Part shown: one piece after another, positions 1,204-28,734 of the stretch
How positions within the stretch are numbered: position 1 is the stretch's first letter
Layout: each line of letters begins with the position of its first letter
IMG/VR virus record: IMGVR_UViG_3300042569_001787
Span: 28,751-92,750 of that record
Strand: one strand, 5' to 3'
Source of the DNA: a virus
Length of the DNA: 64,000 bases
Position numbers and translations under genes: made by a program
The notes under the pieces: generated by a model
Told to the model about the DNA's origin: nothing
The model's database searches: none
The model's input: only the letters and a program-made list of their open reading frames with translations

Positions 1204-1298
1204 CCTTCGGAATAAATTCCGAAAGGGATAAACCATCTAAAAGAAAGGGGGGATGTTCCAAATCTAACAAAGAGGTGTCGTGAGACACCTTTTTGTTT
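1204..1298 (+). ncRNA. Candidate small RNA or 3'UTR element: hairpin, 16S-tail complement, terminator
   Basis: Hairpin ccttcggaa-taaa-ttccgaaagg (1204-1226); AGAAAGGGGGGATGTTCCA (1242-1260); terminator aggtgtc-gtga-gacacct followed by T run. Confidence 0.5.
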
Positions 1299-1410: not shown

Positions 1411-2112
1411 ATGGAGAATAATGAAAAATACGACTTTTGTATTGTTATTACAACATATGAAAGAGAAGATATGTTAAAACAATTATTGGAAGATATTTTT
1501 AAATACACCGAATATAAAATGTATGTGGTCGTGTTTGATGATGGGAGTAAGAGAACTTACGATTTAAGCAAATACGATGTAAAATATATTAAATACGTAA
1601 AAAATAATGGGTTAAAAAATCTTTGGAGAGTGATAAATGATGCCTTTAAATTTATCGGAAAAATAGACGCAAAATATTACTTTTATTTACAAGATGATTT
1701 AAGATTAAAAGAAAATTTTTTTGAAGAAAGTATTAGGATTTTTGAAAAAATTGATGATGATAAAAAAATTTGTTTGGAATTAAGAACGGACCAAAGAACT
1801 ACAAGACCCAATTGGACAGCAATTGAACCAAAAATTATTGATGAATATATACATACTCAATGGGTTGAGCTAGATTTTATATGTAAATACAATTTTTTTG
1901 AGGCCCTTAATTTTAAAATAAACCCAATACCTATGTCAAGATGGGATAAAAATCCGCATATTAGTAGTGGTGTTGGACAACAGATTAGTGTTAGATTATC
2001 TGAAAAAGGGTTAAATATGTATCACGTTATTAATACCTTGACAACTCACGGTGACCACGAATCTGTATTATTACCCGAACTTAGAAAAAATGAAAAATTA
2101 CTCGCAATATAA
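1411..2112 (+). CDS. Glycosyltransferase family 2-like
   Basis: VITTYER, VFDDGS and YLQDD GT-A motifs. Confidence 0.8.
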   Translation: MENNEKYDFCIVITTYEREDMLKQLLEDIFKYTEYKMYVVVFDDGSKRTYDLSKYDVKYIKYVKNNGLKNLWRVINDAFKFIGKIDAKYYFYLQDDLRLKENFFEESIRIFEKIDDDKKICLELRTDQRTTRPNWTAIEPKIIDEYIHTQWVELDFICKYNFFEALNFKINPIPMSRWDKNPHISSGVGQQISVRLSEKGLNMYHVINTLTTHGDHESVLLPELRKNEKLLAI

Positions 2113-2699
2113 TGAATATAAAAACTTATATAATAAACCTTGAACGAAGAACGGATAGGTTAAACGAATTAAAAATACCCTTTAACTACGAATTTTTTGT
2201 TGCGACAGATGGTATAAAAGTGTTTGATAGTGATGTTTACAGTAGAAAAGAATTGGCTCACTTAGGTTGTAAAGATAGTCATAAACGATTATTGTCTAAA
2301 ATATATGATGATGGGTTAGAACACTGTTTAGTTTTTGAAGATGATGTTGAATTGTGTGAAAATTTTGAAGTTAAATTAAATGAAATAATTGAAGAACTAC
2401 CAAAAGATTGGGATATAGTTTATTTAGGAGGATGGAACCTTGGAGATAAGAAACCATACTCAACTAAATTAGATATTGCCGAAAAAATTTACACTACCCA
2501 TTCTTATCTAATAAGACGTAAATTTATTCCAAAATTACTTGAAGAACTTGATACTAATGAATGTGAAAAAGTTGATGTTGTTTTTAGTGTTTTACAAGAA
2601 CAAAATAAATGTTTTATTACGTCACCTATTTTGTGTTGGCAAAGGGAAGGATTTAGTGATATTCAAAATAAAATAACTAATAATATACATTTATTATGA
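2112..2699 (+). CDS. Glycosyltransferase family 25 (LPS-biosynthesis type)
   Basis: YIINLERRTDR, GCKDSH, VFEDD signature. Confidence 0.85.
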   Translation: MNIKTYIINLERRTDRLNELKIPFNYEFFVATDGIKVFDSDVYSRKELAHLGCKDSHKRLLSKIYDDGLEHCLVFEDDVELCENFEVKLNEIIEELPKDWDIVYLGGWNLGDKKPYSTKLDIAEKIYTTHSYLIRRKFIPKLLEELDTNECEKVDVVFSVLQEQNKCFITSPILCWQREGFSDIQNKITNNIHLL

Positions 2700-3307
2700 T
2701 AATAACCTTTTATAATGCTAAGATAAACCAATCAGTGGTTACAAACCAAAAGAGAGTTTTTGAACATTTTAATATCGAATTAAATCAAATTGAATGCGGT
2801 CAATGGATTGGTCACGGAAAAGTAATAGATAAATATCTTAGAGAATGTAATCAAGATTGGGAATATCTGATATTATTTGATATTGACAGTATACCCCTCA
2901 ATGAAAAAATAATACCTGAAACTATTGAATGGATTAAGAATAACCACGGATTATTTTCTGTTGCACAAAAAGCTAGTCATATTAAAGATTCTATAGTTTA
3001 TGCGGGTCCTTGTTTTTTAGGGTTTAGTAGAGAAACCTACGAATTAATGGGCCGACCATCTTTTGACAAAACGTATCGTTCAGATTGTGCTGGTGAACTA
3101 ACTTATTTTGCAATTGATAAAGGATTTGAAGTTAAATTAATGTACCCATCAAGTGTTGAGGAACCAAGGTGGGATTTAGAAGATGGTGTTAAATTTGGGT
3201 TTGGTACTACTTATGAAAACAATATTTACCACTCGTTTGAATCACGATTTCACAATATTGATATGTTTATAAATAAATGTGAAAAAGTTTTGAATAATAA
3301 TGGATAA
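2696..3307 (+). CDS. Putative GT-A fold nucleotide-sugar transferase
   Basis: LFDIDSIP DxD motif, located in GT operon. Confidence 0.55.
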   Translation: MIITFYNAKINQSVVTNQKRVFEHFNIELNQIECGQWIGHGKVIDKYLRECNQDWEYLILFDIDSIPLNEKIIPETIEWIKNNHGLFSVAQKASHIKDSIVYAGPCFLGFSRETYELMGRPSFDKTYRSDCAGELTYFAIDKGFEVKLMYPSSVEEPRWDLEDGVKFGFGTTYENNIYHSFESRFHNIDMFINKCEKVLNNNG

Positions 3308-5036
3308 GATAATTTATAATATCGCCAGTTATAAAAGAGGTGATACGTTAATTAATACAATACAATCAATTTATAATCAATGTGATATTATCAACGTTGC
3401 CCTTAATGATTATGATGAAATACCTGTTGAATTATACGATAAAAAAATAAATTTGTTTATTACGGATAATGACAGAGGGGATGCGTATAAATTTTATAAA
3501 TTAATGGATTCTGATGGTTATTATTTTACAATAGATGACGATTTGATTTACCCTGAAAACTATACTAAATATATGGTTGACAAGGTTAATCAATATAATA
3601 GGAAGTCGATTATTACTTTACACGCACGAACTTTTAACTCATTCCCCATTAATAGTTATTATAATAGTAAATCATCTGTTTATCATTTTAAAAAATCATT
3701 GGATAAAGACCGTAAAGTACAATTTGGTGGTACTGGAGTAATGTGTTTTCACACTGATTTATTTAAAGTTCCTATTGAGTATTTTGATAAACCAAATATG
3801 GCAGATGTGTGGGTTGGTAAATACGCTAAAGAAAATAATATTGAAATTACATGTGTAGAACATAATGGAGGGTTTGTTAAACAACAAGATATTGATAGTA
3901 GTATATACAAAACTGGTTTGAAAAATGATGATATACAAACAAAATTAACTAACGAGTGTTATATAGATAAGGAAATTTCAATGAAATTAGTAATAGTATC
4001 AACGTTTTGGAATTCCGAAAAATTTGTTTCGGATTGTATTAAATCTTTAAAAAACCAATATTACACAAATTTTGTGTCATATATGATTGATGATATGTCG
4101 ACCGACAAATCATATGATGTTGCCAAAAAAGAAATTGGTGATGATGAACGTTTTATTCTTATAAAAAACACAGAAAAAAAATATAAAACCAAAAATTTTA
4201 TAGATGTTATTCGTAATAACAAAAATATTGATTCGAACGATGTTATTATTGAATTGGATGGGGATGACCAATTAATTGATAATTTTGTGTTAGGTTTAAT
4301 TAATAAAATTTACACTGACCCTAATATTTGGATTTGTGGTTCTAAATGGAGAGATAAAAAGGGTGGCACCATGAAGTATGGTAGAGCAAATGCGGATAAC
4401 CCTAGACGTACTAGTTGGAACTTTTCTCACATGAGAACTTATCGAGCATTTTTATTCAGAATGATAAAAGATGCTGATTTAAGATACAATGGGCAATATT
4501 TTAAAGCGGCAGTAGATTTAGGCATTGGGATACCTATGTTAGAAATGTCAGGTAATGAACATTATTATTTCTTAGATGAGGTAACCTATCTTTACACATG
4601 GCACAACCATCAATCCTATTCTAAAAATAGTTCTTTTGGAGATTCTAAATTACAAGGTCTTACCGCAAAACATATATACCAATTACCTGTTTATAAAAAA
4701 TTAATTATCGAGAAAGGTTACGATGAGATAAAAATTAATGTTGAAAACGTCCCGACATCAAAAGAGTTAATTAATAATTTATTAACTGATAAACCACTCA
4801 GCCCAAAGGTGTCTTCATTTAACTATGACTTAATTAATCAAATTATTCTTAACAAAAACGTGTATAACCCCAAAAATCATATTAAACCTATTAGGGAGAA
4901 TATTCCGTTAGACAGGAACAAATTAATTGAGATTAAAAAAGGTTCCATTGCCGACGAAGCAAGAAAGTCCTTAACAAAAACATTTAATAAGGTAAATAAG
5001 ACGCCAAATATTTTTGGAGGTAAAAAAAGAATGTAA
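3300..5036 (+). CDS. Tandem double GT2 glycosyltransferase
   Basis: Two GT-A domains (FTIDDDLIYP; IDDMSTD...ELDGDD). Confidence 0.8.
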   Translation: MDKIIYNIASYKRGDTLINTIQSIYNQCDIINVALNDYDEIPVELYDKKINLFITDNDRGDAYKFYKLMDSDGYYFTIDDDLIYPENYTKYMVDKVNQYNRKSIITLHARTFNSFPINSYYNSKSSVYHFKKSLDKDRKVQFGGTGVMCFHTDLFKVPIEYFDKPNMADVWVGKYAKENNIEITCVEHNGGFVKQQDIDSSIYKTGLKNDDIQTKLTNECYIDKEISMKLVIVSTFWNSEKFVSDCIKSLKNQYYTNFVSYMIDDMSTDKSYDVAKKEIGDDERFILIKNTEKKYKTKNFIDVIRNNKNIDSNDVIIELDGDDQLIDNFVLGLINKIYTDPNIWICGSKWRDKKGGTMKYGRANADNPRRTSWNFSHMRTYRAFLFRMIKDADLRYNGQYFKAAVDLGIGIPMLEMSGNEHYYFLDEVTYLYTWHNHQSYSKNSSFGDSKLQGLTAKHIYQLPVYKKLIIEKGYDEIKINVENVPTSKELINNLLTDKPLSPKVSSFNYDLINQIILNKNVYNPKNHIKPIRENIPLDRNKLIEIKKGSIADEARKSLTKTFNKVNKTPNIFGGKKRM

Positions 5037-5101: not shown

Positions 5102-5175
5102 GGCTTCGTAGCTCAATTGGACAGAGCAACACACTTCTAATGTGTAGGTTACTGGTTCGAATCCAGTCGAGGTCA
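5102..5175 (+). tRNA. tRNA-Arg(TCT)
   Basis: Acceptor ggcttcg/cgaggtc, anticodon loop c-t-TCT-aa, GGTTCGAATCC T-arm. Confidence 0.93.
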
Positions 5176-5189
5176 CTAAAATTTATTAT

Positions 5190-5441
5190 ATGGGAAGACA
5201 TGACAATATCTTAGAACAAGAACACAACGAGTTTGTTAATAGCGAACTATTTTGTCAAATGATTACGGAAAAAATAGAAAATTCACATTTTCATAAATAT
5301 GATGGTATAACACCTGAAGGGTTTTTACTTATACCCGAACAAACCTTAGAAAGGTTGAAAGATTTTGAAACTTGGAAAGAGTGGAAAAATAATCCATCAA
5401 TTTTAAAAAAAATGATGATTGACGATTTAAAAAATGAATAA
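5190..5441 (+). CDS. Hypothetical protein
   Basis: 83-aa ORF. Confidence 0.55.
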   Translation: MGRHDNILEQEHNEFVNSELFCQMITEKIENSHFHKYDGITPEGFLLIPEQTLERLKDFETWKEWKNNPSILKKMMIDDLKNE

Positions 5442-5479
5442 TTTTTTTGTAGATTAAAAAAAAATAGTACATTTGTGGT

Positions 5480-6187
5480 ATGAAATATTCAGCACTTAAA
5501 GACATCGTTTATATTGGTTTGATGGTTTTTGTTATCGGAGGAACCAATGAGTATTTGGAAAAATACGACTATAGTTATGACAAAGTAATGGGTTCTTTGG
5601 AGTCTGAGGCAAAAAGACTTGACAAAGTTTACGGTTATGACAAGAACTATTCAAAAGAAGAAGAGGTTAAAATTACTGATTCAAAACAACCATCTTCAAC
5701 TGAAGTTAGTTCTGACCGAGTAATCAACATCCACGGTTTTGGTAAATATACTCAAAGTGACCTTTATACAATCAAAGAAGGTGTTGAAAACTTCTACGGT
5801 ATCCGTTGTGTCATCTCTGAAAGTGTTGAGTCAGATGATTTTTACTATGACAATAACACTAACGTATTATTAGCGTACAAAGTATTAACATTATCTGTTG
5901 GTAAATCAAATATGAATATGTATGTTACTGACGAACCATTATGTAATGAAAATTCTAATGATTTGATTAGTGGACACGCAAGAATTAATTGTGACGGCTC
6001 TGTTATCAGTACTAAAGAAATGAGAAACAACAATCACTATAATAATACTAGTTTAGTTCATACTGCGGTACACGAATTAGGACATAACTTTGGGTTATCT
6101 CACTGTAATAACCAATCTTGTATCATGAAATCTCACGGTTTAGACACTAAAGAGTTCTGTAATGAGTGTAAATTAAAAATTAATTAG
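5480..6187 (+). CDS. Membrane-anchored zinc metalloprotease (archaemetzincin/M54-like)
   Basis: N-terminal hydrophobic segment; HELGHNFGLSHC..CIM and C-terminal CxxC. Confidence 0.8.
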   Translation: MKYSALKDIVYIGLMVFVIGGTNEYLEKYDYSYDKVMGSLESEAKRLDKVYGYDKNYSKEEEVKITDSKQPSSTEVSSDRVINIHGFGKYTQSDLYTIKEGVENFYGIRCVISESVESDDFYYDNNTNVLLAYKVLTLSVGKSNMNMYVTDEPLCNENSNDLISGHARINCDGSVISTKEMRNNNHYNNTSLVHTAVHELGHNFGLSHCNNQSCIMKSHGLDTKEFCNECKLKIN

Positions 6188-6212
6188 TGATAATTTTTTT
6201 ACATCAATAAAC

Positions 6213-6241
6213 AAAAAAAGGGGGATAATTCCCCCTTTTTT
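6213..6241. terminator. Bidirectional intrinsic terminator
   Basis: aaaaaaaggggga-taat-tcccccttttt between convergent genes. Confidence 0.75.
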
Positions 6242-6262
6242 CTTTGATTTGGTATTTATCAA

Positions 6263-6427
6263 CTATTTCTTTTTAGAAATAATTGACCACACACCACCTA
6301 CAAGTGTAACCGCTGCTCCGATAAGTTCTTGTACTGATGAATCAGTTGCAAGACCTTTCATAATCAGGATACCACCTACAAAAGTAAGTGCGTGTCTAAC
6401 GATACCTTGGATTTGTTCTTTAGTCAT
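6263..6427 (-). CDS. Small two-TM membrane protein, holin-like (54 aa, not in ORF track)
   Basis: MTKEQIQGIVRHALTFVGGILIMKGLATDSSVQELIGAAVTLVGGVWSIISKKK; TATTTAT motif upstream on the minus strand. Confidence 0.7.
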   Translation of the reverse strand: MTKEQIQGIVRHALTFVGGILIMKGLATDSSVQELIGAAVTLVGGVWSIISKKK

Positions 6428-6484
6428 TTTTAATGTTGATTAAAGGTTTATGCCAGACTATAAATATCAAAAAAATAGTAAAAC

Positions 6485-6520
6485 AGTCTTTTGGTCTAAT
6501 GGTAGGACCCGTGGTTTTGG
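6485..6520 (+). pseudogene. 5' half remnant of a tRNA-Gln(TTG)
   Basis: agtcttt-tg-gtctaatggtaggac-c-cgtgg-tt-TTG-g, then abrupt AT-rich sequence with no T-arm. Confidence 0.5.
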
Positions 6521-6606
6521 GTTAAAAGATAAAAATTTTAATTTATTAGTTTAATATTTTTCGCACAAGTAGACTCCGATTACAAAATTTTTTGTATCTT
6601 TACAAT

Positions 6607-7101
6607 ATGAAAGACTCACTACCATATTGTAATACAGAAAAAGCGATTAAAGGTTATGAAGAATCCCAAATTGCGAAAAATGAAAAAAATGATTGTGTTG
6701 TAAGAGCATTCGCATCTTGTTTTGATGTGTCTTACAATTATGCTCACGGATACGTTAGAGATAACTTTGGTCGTAATAACCGTCAAGGAACTTATGGTAC
6801 TGTAAATAAAATGACCAAACTTGCGGAGAATAGAACTCAAATAAATTACAAAAAAGTTAAATGTGTTGGTAAATTAAACAATTACAATAGACGCACATTA
6901 GAATATACCGTTAACGTAAAGGGTGAAAAGGTTAACCGTAAAATGACTGTTGGTACTTTTACAAAACAAAACCCTGTTGGGACATTTTTTATGTTAGTTA
7001 GTCGTCACGCTTTCACAATTAAAGATGGTGTTGTGATTGGTAACTATGAAGATTCAACCAAGAAAAAACGTATATTGTTTTATGCGTTTGAAGTAAAATA
7101 A
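6607..7101 (+). CDS. Hypothetical early protein (possible Cys-His hydrolase)
   Basis: ATG 4 nt after TATCTTTA promoter box; NDCVVRA...RHA motifs. Confidence 0.6.
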   Translation: MKDSLPYCNTEKAIKGYEESQIAKNEKNDCVVRAFASCFDVSYNYAHGYVRDNFGRNNRQGTYGTVNKMTKLAENRTQINYKKVKCVGKLNNYNRRTLEYTVNVKGEKVNRKMTVGTFTKQNPVGTFFMLVSRHAFTIKDGVVIGNYEDSTKKKRILFYAFEVK

Positions 7102-7158
7102 TAAAAAATATTTTACAAATTGTTTGGCAAATCAAAAGTGATTATATATCTTTGTGAT

Positions 7159-7359
7159 ATGGAAATAACAATTAACATACCCAATAGTGTTCTTAATAGA
7201 ATGAAAGAACTCAAAATTACAGACGAAAATATTCAAAAAGAAATGGTAATTGATTTTATCAACGACTCTTTGGACTCACATTACGCCAACGGAATGTTTG
7301 ATAAATTCAGAAAATGGACATTAAAAAATGATAATTTTGAAGTTTATTTGGTAGATTAA
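7159..7359 (+). CDS. Hypothetical early protein
   Basis: In-frame ATG 4 nt after TATCTTTG. Confidence 0.55.
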   Translation: MEITINIPNSVLNRMKELKITDENIQKEMVIDFINDSLDSHYANGMFDKFRKWTLKNDNFEVYLVD

Positions 7360-7452
7360 AAAAAGTTTGTATCTTTGTAAGGCAAACAACGGGGGTAGGA
7401 AGTGAGAGGTTGATGTCCTACTCCCGTAAAGAAAGAAGAAGTTCATTGACAT
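7347..7452 (+). promoter_or_regulatory. Bacteroidota-type promoter, leader hairpin and boxA-like site of the tRNA operon
   Basis: TTTG 7347, TATCTTTG 7370-7377, hairpin cgggggtagga/tcctactcccg, GTTCATTGACAT 7441-7452. Confidence 0.65.
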
Positions 7453-7459
7453 TAAAATA

Positions 7460-7552
7460 TTGTGGTGGTAAGAAACGGGAAACTTGTAAAGTACATTAAC
7501 CTGTTGACATAAGATGGTGAAACGAGAGTGTGTGTCAGCTACTTAACTGCAA
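7460..7552 (+). ncRNA. Unassigned structured RNA at the head of the tRNA operon
   Basis: Ends pair (ttgtggt..taag / ctta-actgcaa); inner stem gttgacata/tgtgtcagc; no ORF. Confidence 0.4.
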
Positions 7553-7558
7553 ATAAAT

Positions 7559-7632
7559 GGTAACTATAGCTCAGTTGGTAGAGCAAAGGTTTGTGGTACC
7601 TTGTGCCATGGGTTCAATTCCCATTAGTTACC
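7559..7632 (+). tRNA. tRNA-His(GTG)
   Basis: Encoded G-1 and C73, anticodon loop tt-GTG-gt, canonical D and T arms. Confidence 0.93.
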
Positions 7633-7644
7633 CAAAAAAAATAT

Positions 7645-7718
7645 AGTTAATTAGCTCAGTTGGTTAGAGCAATTCCCTGATACGGAATAGGTCATTGGTT
7701 CGAGTCCAATATTAACTA
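7645..7718 (+). tRNA. tRNA-Ile(GAT)
   Basis: Acceptor agttaat/attaact, anticodon loop ct-GAT-ac. Confidence 0.93.
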
Positions 7719-7723
7719 CATAT

Positions 7724-7796
7724 CGCGGGATGTGGAAATTGGTCATCCGCTCGGTCTCATAAGCCGAGATTACAGGTTCGAGCCCTGTTCCCGCAA
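7724..7796 (+). tRNA. tRNA-fMet(CAT), initiator type
   Basis: cgcggga/tcccgca with C1:A72 mismatch; anticodon loop ct-CAT-aa. Confidence 0.88.
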
Positions 7797-7804
7797 CAAC
7801 AAAA

Positions 7805-7864
7805 GGGTAGAATATTCGTAAGGGCCTTTCCTGAAAGATGGCTAGCTAGGCCCGTGTCTACCCT
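7805..7864 (+). ncRNA. Unassigned 60-nt structured RNA between tRNAs
   Basis: Outer stem agggtaga/tctaccct, inner stem gggcct/aggccc. Confidence 0.45.
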
Positions 7865-7871
7865 GATTTTT

Positions 7872-7943
7872 GGTCCCATCGACTATCGGTTAGGTCGTCA
7901 GGTTTTCATCCTGGAAAGTCGGGTTCGATTCCCGGTGGGACTA
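7872..7943 (+). tRNA. tRNA-Glu(TTC)
   Basis: Acceptor ggtccca/tgggact, anticodon loop tt-TTC-at. Confidence 0.93.
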
Positions 7944-8056
7944 CTATAGCCAACCAAGCTTTACTACGATAAGGGTTCATACCTTGACTTTACTAAATAA
8001 ACGCTTAATAGAACAAAGTACAAGTTCAGAGTGAGGAGCGGGTCTCACAAACTTTT

Positions 8057-8129
8057 GGTCCCGTGGTTGAATGGTTACAATTCCACCCTGTCACGGTGCG
8101 AGATACGGGTTCGAATCCCGTCGGGACCG
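8057..8129 (+). tRNA. tRNA-Asp(GTC)
   Basis: Acceptor ggtcccg/cgggacc, anticodon loop ct-GTC-ac. Confidence 0.93.
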
Positions 8130-8152
8130 CAAAATAATGAATAATAACTATT

Positions 8153-11733: not shown

Positions 11734-11776
11734 ACAATCCCCCTTTTTTAGGGGGTTTTTTTTCTTTAAAAAAAAA

Positions 11777-12000
11777 TTTAGTAAATCAAAAAAGTTTACT
11801 TATCTTTGTACAACAAAAGAGATAGATAACAATTCAGATACAAATCTTAAAAAAAAAATAAAAAAAGATTTGGTAAATCGAAAAAGTTTACTTATCTTTG
11901 TACAACAAAAGAGATAGATAACGATTCAGATACAAATCTTTAAAAAAAATAAAAAAAGATTTGGTAAATTGAAAAAGTTTACTTATCTTTGTAAAACAAA
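11777..12000 (+). repeat. About 2.5 tandem copies of a 91-92 bp unit, each carrying a Bacteroidota promoter
   Basis: TATCTTTG at 11801, 11893 and 11984, each preceded by ttt(a/g)gtaaat..aaaaagtttact. Confidence 0.9.
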
Positions 12001-12017
12001 TCGGAAGAGTCCGAAAC

Positions 12018-12029
12018 GTTCTTTGAAAT
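12018..12029 (+). promoter_or_regulatory. boxA-like antitermination site
   Basis: GTTCTTTGAAAT, resembling rRNA-operon boxA. Confidence 0.55.
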
Positions 12030-12069
12030 ATTATTATCCATTACAACACTTCGGTGTTGTATAAAAGAT

Positions 12070-12877
12070 AATCGGCCGTATATGGTCGTTAAATAAACCT
12101 CGAAAGGGGGATAAAGTGAAATCATCGTGTTAATGGTTTTGCGGTTCGGGTAACCGAACTCGAGTATACAAGTGGGATATCAGTGAGCCTGTAGTACCGA
12201 GGATAACTTCGTAGGGAAATGGAAAACTGAACGGGCAATGTGGATTGTCAGTTTGAGGTGGGAACACCAATAAGAATAACCCATAGGGGCCAAGTGAGAA
12301 GTGTACTCCAAATACACAATTGCGGGTCCCAATATAAGAGGTGACTTAAAACCGAAGGGATAAAACCTGAAGGTAAGATAGAGAACGAGTGGTGTCGCTA
12401 ATATCCTTACCACAGACCCACCAAGGTCTTGGTACGAAGTAATCTTAAAATATGAGAGTGGGGACACTCTACCGAGTAGAAAAGTATCTTGTTGTTCAAA
12501 AGACAACGAGGCTTAAGACGGACCTCTACTTGGAATCATCCACAACACATAACTTATACTAAATTTAAGTAAAACTAAAATAACTATAAGCAAAAGTGTT
12601 CGTCAGGTTTTGATGAAAGTCGCCTACATAGTCATGAGTTGTTCATGGCATACCGAGACCGCAAGTCAACGTATATTGTTACCAAAAACCTCTAAGGAGT
12701 CGAATCCTAAGTCAGTTCGCAAGATTGAGGAGAGTAGAGTAGTAATAGAGTAGTTAAAACCTTAAGAAGTGATTGGTCTAACCAATCGGCGATGAGGATT
12801 ACCATTCAAAAGATGGTGGAAATGAAGGGAAACAATAATCCTTCTAAAGATTCTCACAAAACGGTGTATTCTCAGCC
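12070..12877 (+). ncRNA. Large structured ncRNA, GOLLD-like
   Basis: ~810 nt with no credible ORF, raised GC, many hairpins with GNRA-type loops, two halves joined by an AT-rich linker (~12545-12590), strong promoters upstream and terminator downstream; family name from size, context and recalled motifs only. Confidence 0.65.
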
Positions 12878-13019
12878 CTTTTTAAAATTACCCAATATAT
12901 AGAATACGATTTTTAATCAAACCTCAATAATCTTGGGGTTTTTTTATTTTAAAAAAAGTTTTGTAATTTAATTTATGTGTATAAAAAAACCCCACCTTTT
13001 TAAGATGAGGTTTAATTAG

Positions 13020-13406
13020 TGGAGGTAGAGGGGTTCGAACCCTCGTGTTGTACACCTTACCTATTAAGGACTACACGCTTAGGATAACATTTTCTAATGT
13101 TCCAAAAATAGTTAGTTCGTTCTTCACCATCGTAAACTAACAACCAATGGATGACTCAATTTTGGGTTCAGTCATTTTTCCACCCTTGTAAAGACTTCTG
13201 TTCCTAGGTTGTATGTCCACCGACCCGTATGGTTGTTTCCTATATGTTAGGCAACTACCGCAGCGTCTTCACGGATTAATCCGATTGTCGCCATTTTGTT
13301 TAAAACGTTTCCGTTTACTGTTTACATCCGTAGATTTAAGTGAAAGGATACATCTCACTGCGTGCCCCGAATAACTAACAATGCCAGTCAATTCCAAGTT
13401 ACCCCC
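13020..13406 (-). ncRNA. ssrA: tmRNA
   Basis: 5' GGGGGUAACUUGGAAUUGAC; 3' T-arm GAGGGUUCGAACCCCUC-UACCUCCA with G3.U70; tag frame 13312-13247 GNVLNKMATIGLIREDAAVVA*. Confidence 0.92.
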
Positions 13407-27823: not shown

Positions 27824-28543
27824 ATGACAAATTTTGGAATAATTAAATCAAAGATTGAAGATGTGTTATTAGAGTCATATAAAAATGACACATTTAAAGA
27901 AGAATTCAAAAAATTTAAAAAGTTAGTTTTAGAAAATAAAAAGATACGCAAACTTTTTTATTTGTATGATGATTTATCTTCTAATAAAGGATTGGCAGAA
28001 TCTATTGTTGACGATTATGTGAATGAATGTATTACCATTTATGAAAATACCATTAATAAAATACAAGAGTCGGATATTACCCCACTAAAGTTATGGGTTA
28101 AAAATTCTAAAGTTGTTAATCAGTATAATAATATTGATAATTTATTCTCAAGAGATATTTTAACAATTGAATCAAGAATAACAAGTAAAAAACTTATTTC
28201 TGAAACTATTAAGAAATTACCTATCAAGAAAACAGACACCGTTCAAATTCCGTTAACCTCTATGGTAAACATTGCAAATAAAACAATCTCAAATTTTATT
28301 GAGTCATTGAGTGAGTCAGATAAAAAAGAATTAACAAAATTTTTATCTGAAGATGATGTTACTTTAAATCAAAAATTTGATAATGTTAAAGAAAGTGTTG
28401 TGAATAAATTAACTGAAATGAAAAATAATAATAAGGACAAGTCAACTCAAATAAGAATTGATGAAACTCTTGATAAAGTAATATCAGAAAAATACGACAA
28501 GTTAACTTATTTCAAACTTAAAAGTTTGAATGAGAATCTTTAA
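27824..28543 (+). CDS. Hypothetical head-module protein
   Basis: 239-aa helical ORF after the portal gene. Confidence 0.65.
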   Translation: MTNFGIIKSKIEDVLLESYKNDTFKEEFKKFKKLVLENKKIRKLFYLYDDLSSNKGLAESIVDDYVNECITIYENTINKIQESDITPLKLWVKNSKVVNQYNNIDNLFSRDILTIESRITSKKLISETIKKLPIKKTDTVQIPLTSMVNIANKTISNFIESLSESDKKELTKFLSEDDVTLNQKFDNVKESVVNKLTEMKNNNKDKSTQIRIDETLDKVISEKYDKLTYFKLKSLNENL

Positions 28544-28734
28544 TCATTGTTTGATTTATATTTTTTTTGTACGTATTTTGCTTTTGAAATTTCATTTCTC
28601 CTTTTAACGGATTTTTTTTGGAATTCTTTTCTCTCGTTTAATTCTCTACTTTGTCTTGTCTTTATAACTTTACTTTTGTAAATTTTTAACGCTTTTTCAA
28701 GAGTTACATTCTTTCCTACTTTTACTATTAACAT
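28540..28734 (-). CDS. rpsU: Ribosomal protein bS21
   Basis: MLIVKV...LEKALKIYKSKV...ELNERKEFQKKSVKRR matches the bS21 pattern. Confidence 0.9.
   Translation of the reverse strand: MLIVKVGKNVTLEKALKIYKSKVIKTRQSRELNERKEFQKKSVKRRNEISKAKYVQKKYKSNND

Follow-up and report, generated by a model that had tools for sequence, protein, structure and literature searches.

Decoy and sponge RNAs include CsrB and RsmZ for CsrA, 6S RNA for RNA polymerase, and the anti-sRNA sponges, and we know of no natural decoy for the rRNA tail of the 30S subunit. Hairpins that sequester an SD are familiar from translational riboswitches and RNA thermometers.

The system with which we compare our locus most closely is the extended SD of rpsU, which belongs to bS21 autoregulation in the Flavobacteriales and other Bacteroidia and for which we rely on four papers (PMC7797042, PMC9976891, PMC13000453, PMC13000457). 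Ribosomes of the Bacteroidia sequester the anti-SD (ASD), and in ribosomes without bS21 initiation favours the extended SD of rpsU (PMC9976891). The 13-bp SD-ASD helix includes a G.U pair and excludes bS21 (PMC13000457), and single mismatches in the rpsU SD abolish initiation (PMC13000453). Phages that encode their own bS21 are predicted to infect Bacteroidetes (PMC9723584), and the authors of PMC9976891 speculated that rpsU autoregulation might counter replacement by phage bS21.

The cassette and its fold

The window, by which we mean the whole stretch of DNA analysed (64,000 nucleotides), makes up the final 64 kb of an IMG/VR virus record of 92,750 bases, which is about 32% complete and has 31.7% G+C. 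The phage fits the bS21-encoding phages of freshwater Bacteroidetes in PMC9723584. A preliminary description of this DNA had pointed to a non-coding cassette in which a complement of the 16S rRNA 3' tail lies single-stranded between a hairpin and a strong terminator. The features of this part of the window are the following.

1 to 1188, + strand, 3' part of a conserved 577-aa phage gene that starts 545 nt before the window (ORF analysis)
1204 to 1226, + strand, P1 hairpin, with a core stem of 1206-1212 with 1217-1223 and an invariant UA in the loop (folding)
1225 to 1259, + strand, P2 hairpin, GGGAUA (1225-1230) with UGUUCC (1254-1259) (minimum-free-energy fold)
1242 to 1260, + strand, complement of the 3'-terminal 17 nt of Bacteroidota 16S rRNA (duplex prediction)
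1262 to 1266, + strand, linker AUCUA from P2 to the terminator, nearly invariant in the 53 distinct sequences
1266 to 1302, + strand, intrinsic terminator, with a 14-bp stem in which an A tract pairs with a U tract, closed by a tetraloop and followed by a U tail

The cassette as we define it (1197-1302, about 100 nt) consists of P1, P2 with its invariant GAAAGGGG loop, and the terminator. Folding bore out the hairpin at 1204-1226 and the 14-bp terminator with its U tract at 1266-1302, both proposed earlier. The terminator has the G+C-containing stem-loop followed by a U tract of an intrinsic terminator (1266-1297 plus the tail) and is bidirectional in form. Within P2, the fold places inner pairs between CC (1233-1234) and GG (1250-1251) across a two-purine internal loop; these bases are invariant in the alignment, and their pairing is a prediction only. 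The A-rich terminal loop of P2 contains the invariant AACCA (1231-1235) and GAAAGGGG (1243-1250). The probability of being unpaired is 0.76 for AGAAAG, 0.46 for the G run and 0.26 for the 3' strand of P2. The earlier claim of a single-stranded tract therefore stands for AGAAAG, which is mostly unpaired, and fails for UGUUCC (1254-1259), which pairs with GGGAUA (1225-1230) and covaries with it. AGAAAG could serve as a toehold, the rest of the tract being partly held in P2.

Two coding explanations were rejected. The sole ORF that overlaps the tract is ATG TTC CAA ATC TAA, as had been noted; its ATG at 1254 is adjacent to the G run and starts a frame of just four codons. This ATG is absent in most relatives and the indels of the loop are not multiples of three, arguing against a mini-ORF or leader peptide and for the earlier view that the tract is non-coding and serves no gene. 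Read-through of the upstream stop codon was likewise set aside: the frame is open through the cassette in relative L006, a second stop follows after four codons in the window, and the arrangement is not conserved. A pseudoknot between the P1 loop and AUCUA was also rejected, as it shows no covariation.

Conservation and covariation

We found 53 distinct versions of the cassette. Searched with a covariance model, five phage records, including two complete genomes (321 and 322 kb), each gave a single strong copy; the remaining matches of the model are terminators, and additional copies in the phage were therefore rejected. In 151 Flavobacteriales genomes the same model found no cassette and returned one false match, a plain terminator, so that a host-encoded homologue was rejected as well. 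A search of 1150-1340 against Rfam 15 at gathering thresholds returned no family, the best E-values being 0.46-0.58 (about 20 bits against cut-offs of 56-60). There was no DNA or protein match among GenBank phages, and we found no earlier description of the cassette in the literature. Three contigs from ENA labelled as marine metagenome (L206, L209 and L218) carry the gene and the cassette, so the family is not confined to lakes.

The preliminary description had looked to conservation and covariation in relatives as a check on the layout, and both were found. In the alignment of 53 distinct sequences, pairing holds in 96.4% of cells, and compensatory change was seen in 20 of the 25 pairs; the sequences are related by descent, so such counts are not counts of independent events. 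The alignment was fitted to the structure model, and an independent MAFFT alignment of 16 sequences agrees with it. Not one of 500 shuffles did as well, and slid controls did not come close. All five core pairs of P1 have compensatory changes. P2 has changes on both sides in four of six pairs, with 91% of cells paired over the 53 sequences; examples are GGAAUA/UAUUCC, GGUAUU/AAUACC, GGGAUU/AAUUCC and GGAAUA/UGUUCC, and GUG...CAC in the L030 group. The terminator covaries in 11 of 14 pairs, with A-U/G.U alternations that fit only an RNA of the + strand. The invariant blocks across the 53 sequences are the UA of the P1 loop, AACCA, GAAAGGGG and AUCUA. Judged from these alignments, it is well supported that the cassette represents a new structured RNA family, specific to one lineage of jumbo phages, whatever its function may be.

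Position and transcription

Every locus with sufficient flank has the cassette directly after the stop codon of the same gene family, that of the 577-aa protein. The core of P1 starts 6-19 nt past the stop codon in 51 of the 53 loci, usually 8-10 nt past it. The 577-aa protein has homologues, the most distant at about 30% identity, on numerous contigs of viral or metagenome origin; a pattern scan added more diverged loci, and in some of them only its N-terminal or middle part is recognisable. Pfam, PHROG and Atlas gave no assignment for this protein, the AlphaFold model is poor (pLDDT 62.8), and Foldseek found no match.

Beyond the terminator the relatives differ: many have a convergent HNH-like gene there, and L003 and L038-L043 have other sequence. 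The cassette is therefore part of the upstream gene's 3' end. The HNH-endonuclease-like gene ends just past the terminator in most relatives (for example L006:4300-4600 and L009:4330-4630) and is missing from the window and from L003, which suggests a mobile insertion beside a conserved terminator. In the window, the cassette is followed by these genes.

1411 to 5036, + strand, a run of four genes directly 3' of the cassette, three of the four with glycosyltransferase domains (GT2, GT25, GT2)
5102 to 8130, + strand, a cluster of six tRNA genes (Arg, His, Ile, Met, Glu, Asp)

The variable downstream sequence bears on the possibility that the RNA is a cis-acting switch, either a riboswitch or an antiterminator of the put/EAR type, that governs read-through of its own terminator by way of competing P1-extension and P2 pairings. 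CC (1204-1205) and GG (1225-1226) can indeed lengthen P1 in competition with P2, the two pairings are mutually exclusive, and an invariant loop sequence adjoins the terminator. However, there is no conserved downstream sequence to regulate, no strand of P1 or P2 competes for the terminator stem, no Rfam riboswitch matches, and the extension of P1, present in the alifold consensus, shows no covariation. We regard a switch of this kind as very improbable.

The motif (G)TATTTAT recurs 5-20 nt 5' of many start codons, on both strands and over the whole record. It probably serves as a promoter specific to the phage and differs from the host-type TAnnTTTG that stands ahead of the RNA genes.

Upstream of window positions -3393, 9830, 18625 and 34013, examples of (G)TATTTAT

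The gene for the 577-aa protein is the last in a run of three genes, and a TATTTAT motif lies ahead of the run. TAnnTTTG was found within 100 nt 5' of the cassette in only one of the 53 loci, and there is no TATTTAT before the cassette in the window; on these grounds a promoter of its own was rejected. We infer that the cassette ends a three-gene transcript that starts behind TATTTAT. Lake-water RNA libraries (assembled Logan contigs) contain pieces of the upstream ORF, and one such contig, from a close strain, starts at 787 and continues past the stop codon and P1 as far as 1250. It is weakly compatible with co-transcription, as contigs of this kind show no ends, strand or level and DNA carry-over is possible. 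The best explanation of the locus is that 1197-1302 forms the structured 3' end of a phage mRNA, in a family found in bS21-encoding jumbo phages of the Bacteroidota. The non-coding character proposed earlier remains; the cassette is an element of a 3' UTR, 6-19 nt behind a stop codon, rather than a free-standing gene.

An element of this kind might also yield a small RNA derived from the 3' UTR, or a sponge, whose purine tract pairs with some other phage or host RNA, for example a phage RNA resembling the 16S tail. Its architecture would suit such a role, with a seed in a loop followed by a terminator, and the terminator, lying directly behind the stop codon, is common to the RNA and the mRNA. 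Yet the record contains no 16S-tail-like sequence within three mismatches, weak evidence given that it is 32% complete, the best non-self partners are ordinary C5U6 terminators and not outliers, and TAnnTTTG is absent within 100 nt upstream in 52 of the 53 loci. A partner RNA or mimic of the 16S tail within the record was rejected for the first two of these reasons, and we think a small RNA or sponge quite unlikely. The best non-self partner (-33.4) is at 6208-6245, a perfect bidirectional terminator (A7 G5 - ATAATT - C5 T6) followed by GGTATTTATC; it takes this rank because of its generic C5U6 content.

Complementarity to the 3' end of 16S rRNA

The 19-mer AGAAAGGGGGGATGTTCCA lies at 1242-1260, where the preliminary description had placed it. 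RNAduplex reproduced, with an energy of -24.3 kcal/mol, the geometry proposed for its pairing with UGGAACACCUCCUUUCU: 10 bp (one of them G.U) and then 7 bp, separated by a 2-nt bulge. The complement was said to be 17 bp long, and 17 nt do pair, although in the window they are bulged and not contiguous. The tail sequence given there is correct: GCGGCTGGAACACCTCCTTTCT matched more than 120 genome contigs, almost all of them from the Bacteroidota and nearly all from the Flavobacteriales, Bacteroidales and Cytophagales. In the record, 1242-1260 is the best partner of the 17-nt tail (the next best has -19.5), and it ranks third with a free tail of 13 nt. The value of -24.3 was reached by 2 of 33 dinucleotide shuffles of the record, and the 9-mer GAAAGGRGG occurs at control frequency in these phage genomes. 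The 16S match seen from the window alone is thus marginal and not convincing, and the evidence that it exceeds chance comes from its conservation in relatives.

Paired with the 17-nt tail, 36 distinct cores have duplex energies of -13.2 to -29.8 kcal/mol, with a median of -20.9. The strongest are L283 and L276, in which AGAAAGGGGGUGUUCC(A/G) forms 17 contiguous pairs, one of them G.U (-29.8). L303 carries GGGGAGGUGUUC, also given as GGAGGUGUUC, L273 and L249 retain GGGGUGUU(C), and the L030 group retains GUUC after a one-base bulge. None of 5000 shuffled tails matched the value of L283, the window or the consensus. The fit is poorer by about 5 kcal/mol for an E. coli-type tail, and within an 8-kb rrn locus of a Flavobacterium the 16S tail is the best partner of the cassette. 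After the cost of opening P2, the net gain on cofolding has a median of -14.6 kcal/mol. One clade (L227, L238, L041, L235 and L039) has a complement of only 9 nt, AGAAAGGGG, at about -13 kcal/mol, and 47 of 5000 shuffled tails did equally well in its control; the 3' strand of P2 in this clade tracks its own 5' strand instead of the 16S rRNA. In some clades this strand (AAUACC, AAUUCU) matches its intramolecular partner rather than the 16S rRNA. The part of the complement that is universal in the cassettes is only AGAAAGGGG(G), and the core is GGGG in all 53 versions and GGAGG in none. Taken together, the alignments and duplex predictions suggest that the complement of the 16S tail is mostly conserved across clades and specific to the real order of the tail.

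These observations must be weighed against a simpler account, in which the cassette is a structured module for stability or termination of the 3' UTR, its loops dock an RNA-binding protein of phage or host or make tertiary contacts, and the likeness to an SD is inherited or incidental. The fixed place right after the stop codon and the strong bidirectional terminator at the end are what such a module would have. P2, with its inner CC/GG pairs, engages the G run and UAUUCC, so that intramolecular pairing explains part of the G run and of the 3' extension; AACCA, AUCUA and the UA of the P1 loop are invariant and have no role in pairing with the ASD; selection purely for pairing with the ASD does not predict a core that is always GGGG; and the clade with the 9-nt complement keeps the entire structure. 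All of these count against reading the tract as a decoy for the ASD. On the other hand, a match of 15-17 nt to the very end of 16S rRNA is hard to obtain by accident, given the shuffled tails and the ranking within the rrn locus. The diverged L273 and L303 retain UGUUC despite its weak pairing with their own 5' strand, and a plain stabiliser needs no loop that stays invariant at about 30% protein identity. We hold this simpler account to be possible, if on the doubtful side.

bS21 and host rpsU

A link to a phage bS21 had been proposed, and the phage does encode one, in a gene without an SD.

28540 to 28734, - strand, phage bS21 gene, 64 aa, Tyr54 kept (PF01165, 36.6 bits)

The region upstream of this gene is A-rich, and the cassette is 27 kb away. 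The rest of the record is similar: GGAG, GAGG or GGAGG occurs in the 20 nt before the start of none of the 97 long ORFs of the 92.7-kb record, in agreement with the earlier remark that the phage genes lack an SD, and upstream regions are A-rich. Of the contigs with a cassette, all 14 that are at least about 60 kb long contain bS21, both complete genomes among them; the four cassette contigs without it are fragments, 14-21% complete. In the three genomes compared, the distance between cassette and bS21 is 27-30 kb. This co-occurrence is consistent with a functional link, although it could reflect shared ancestry only.

The cassette resembles the extended SD of rpsU in several respects. Both have a long complement of the 16S 3' tail, of 9-13 bp including a G.U pair in rpsU and of 9-17 nt with a G.U in the cassette, and the tract shows the at least 9 contiguous pairs, below about -13 kcal/mol, that characterise the rpsU type. 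Energies are similar by one method, which differs from the free_scan of the papers: two Flavobacterium rpsU leaders, GAGAGGAGGTGT and GAAAGGAGGTGT, gave -21.5 and -22.6, compared with the median of -20.9 for the cassette. Each is the sole such site in a genome otherwise without SDs, and each is tied to the biology of bS21.

The differences are as clear. No start codon or ORF of the rpsU kind stands behind the cassette tract, and a terminator follows within about 10 nt instead. The cassette sits in the 3' UTR of a different phage gene, and 27 kb separate it from the bS21 gene of the phage, itself without an SD. Its core is a G run (GGGGG) in place of GGAGG, its tract is embedded in a conserved hairpin with additional invariant blocks, and its complement reaches further 5' along the 16S rRNA in most clades. 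Because single mismatches in the rpsU SD abolish initiation (PMC13000453), the bulged or mismatched versions of the cassette may bind poorly.

The rpsU genes of a Crocinitomicaceae MAG (L166) and a Cytophagaceae MAG (L164) have no extended SD (-4.3 and -6.2 kcal/mol, respectively), and in hosts of this type a decoy would therefore have no rpsU target.

The other two kinds of RNA regulator offer partial parallels. Like decoy and sponge RNAs, the cassette is non-coding and displays the binding site of a normal ligand without the productive context, the binding in this case being predicted. Unlike the known decoys, it would target the rRNA tail of a 30S subunit, it has a single site, and it is made as the 3' end of an mRNA. 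As in hairpins that sequester an SD, an SD-like tract is partly paired with sequence upstream (GGGAUA..CC with GG..UGUUCC), leaving a toehold in the loop. Unlike those hairpins, the cassette has no regulated ORF downstream and no known ligand, and it stands at a 3' end.

Other RNAs in the window

The window also contains a GOLLD RNA (Rfam match at 12472-12878, 324 bits), preceded by three tandem repeats of about 65 nt, the whole region being 11760-12878. Each repeat bears a promoter of the Bacteroidota type (TTTAC...TATCTTTG), and the structured 5' part of the GOLLD RNA seems to begin near 12000. A phage tmRNA is convergent with it.

13017 to 13406, - strand, phage tmRNA

Within the 5' region of the GOLLD RNA, AAACCTCGAAAGGGGGAT (12096-12113) is similar to the P2 loop of the cassette (AAACC...GAAAGGGGGAT) and is the second-best partner in the record of the last 10 nt of 16S rRNA (-14.9). 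It may simply be a CCUC-GAAA-GGGG hairpin.

Possible function

With these comparisons in hand, we give about even chances to the reading that the cassette is a mimic of the extended SD of host rpsU, one that lacks a start codon and would bind 16S tails left uncovered by bS21. From this model we infer, and purely so, an action as decoy or sensor on 30S subunits. The unpaired AGAAAG of the P2 loop would nucleate on the 3'-terminal CUUUCU of the 16S rRNA, outside the bS21/bS18/bS6 pocket. Pairing would then extend into GGGG and, for most clades, on into U(G/A)UUC(C), and would displace the weaker P2 stem. With no start codon behind the tract and an RNA that ends in a terminator, the 30S subunit would be held unproductively. 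The phage might benefit if the decoy competed with host rpsU mRNA for 30S subunits free of bS21, blunting the re-synthesis of host bS21, and its own bS21 mRNA, which has no SD, would be unaffected. Measured against the preliminary description as a whole, the observation has been partly confirmed and its interpretation is partly supported.

A bolder version would make the RNA an active exchange factor, stripping host bS21 from mature ribosomes so that phage bS21 fills the site. Toehold pairing with the 16S tail would lead to a helix of at least 15 bp, beyond the 13-bp rpsU helix that excludes bS21, and abundant phage bS21 could occupy the empty site once the RNA departs. The spacing from the stop codon and the competing P1-extension and P2 pairings might link translation of the upstream late gene with exposure of the site. 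We consider active exchange unlikely.

How phage bS21 enters host ribosomes is a question that both PMC9723584 and PMC9976891 raise. The only known natural user of the hidden ASD of the Bacteroidia is the mRNA of host rpsU, by way of ribosomes that lack bS21. If the reading as a start-less rpsU mimic is true, the cassette would be the first candidate for a natural decoy of the 16S tail.
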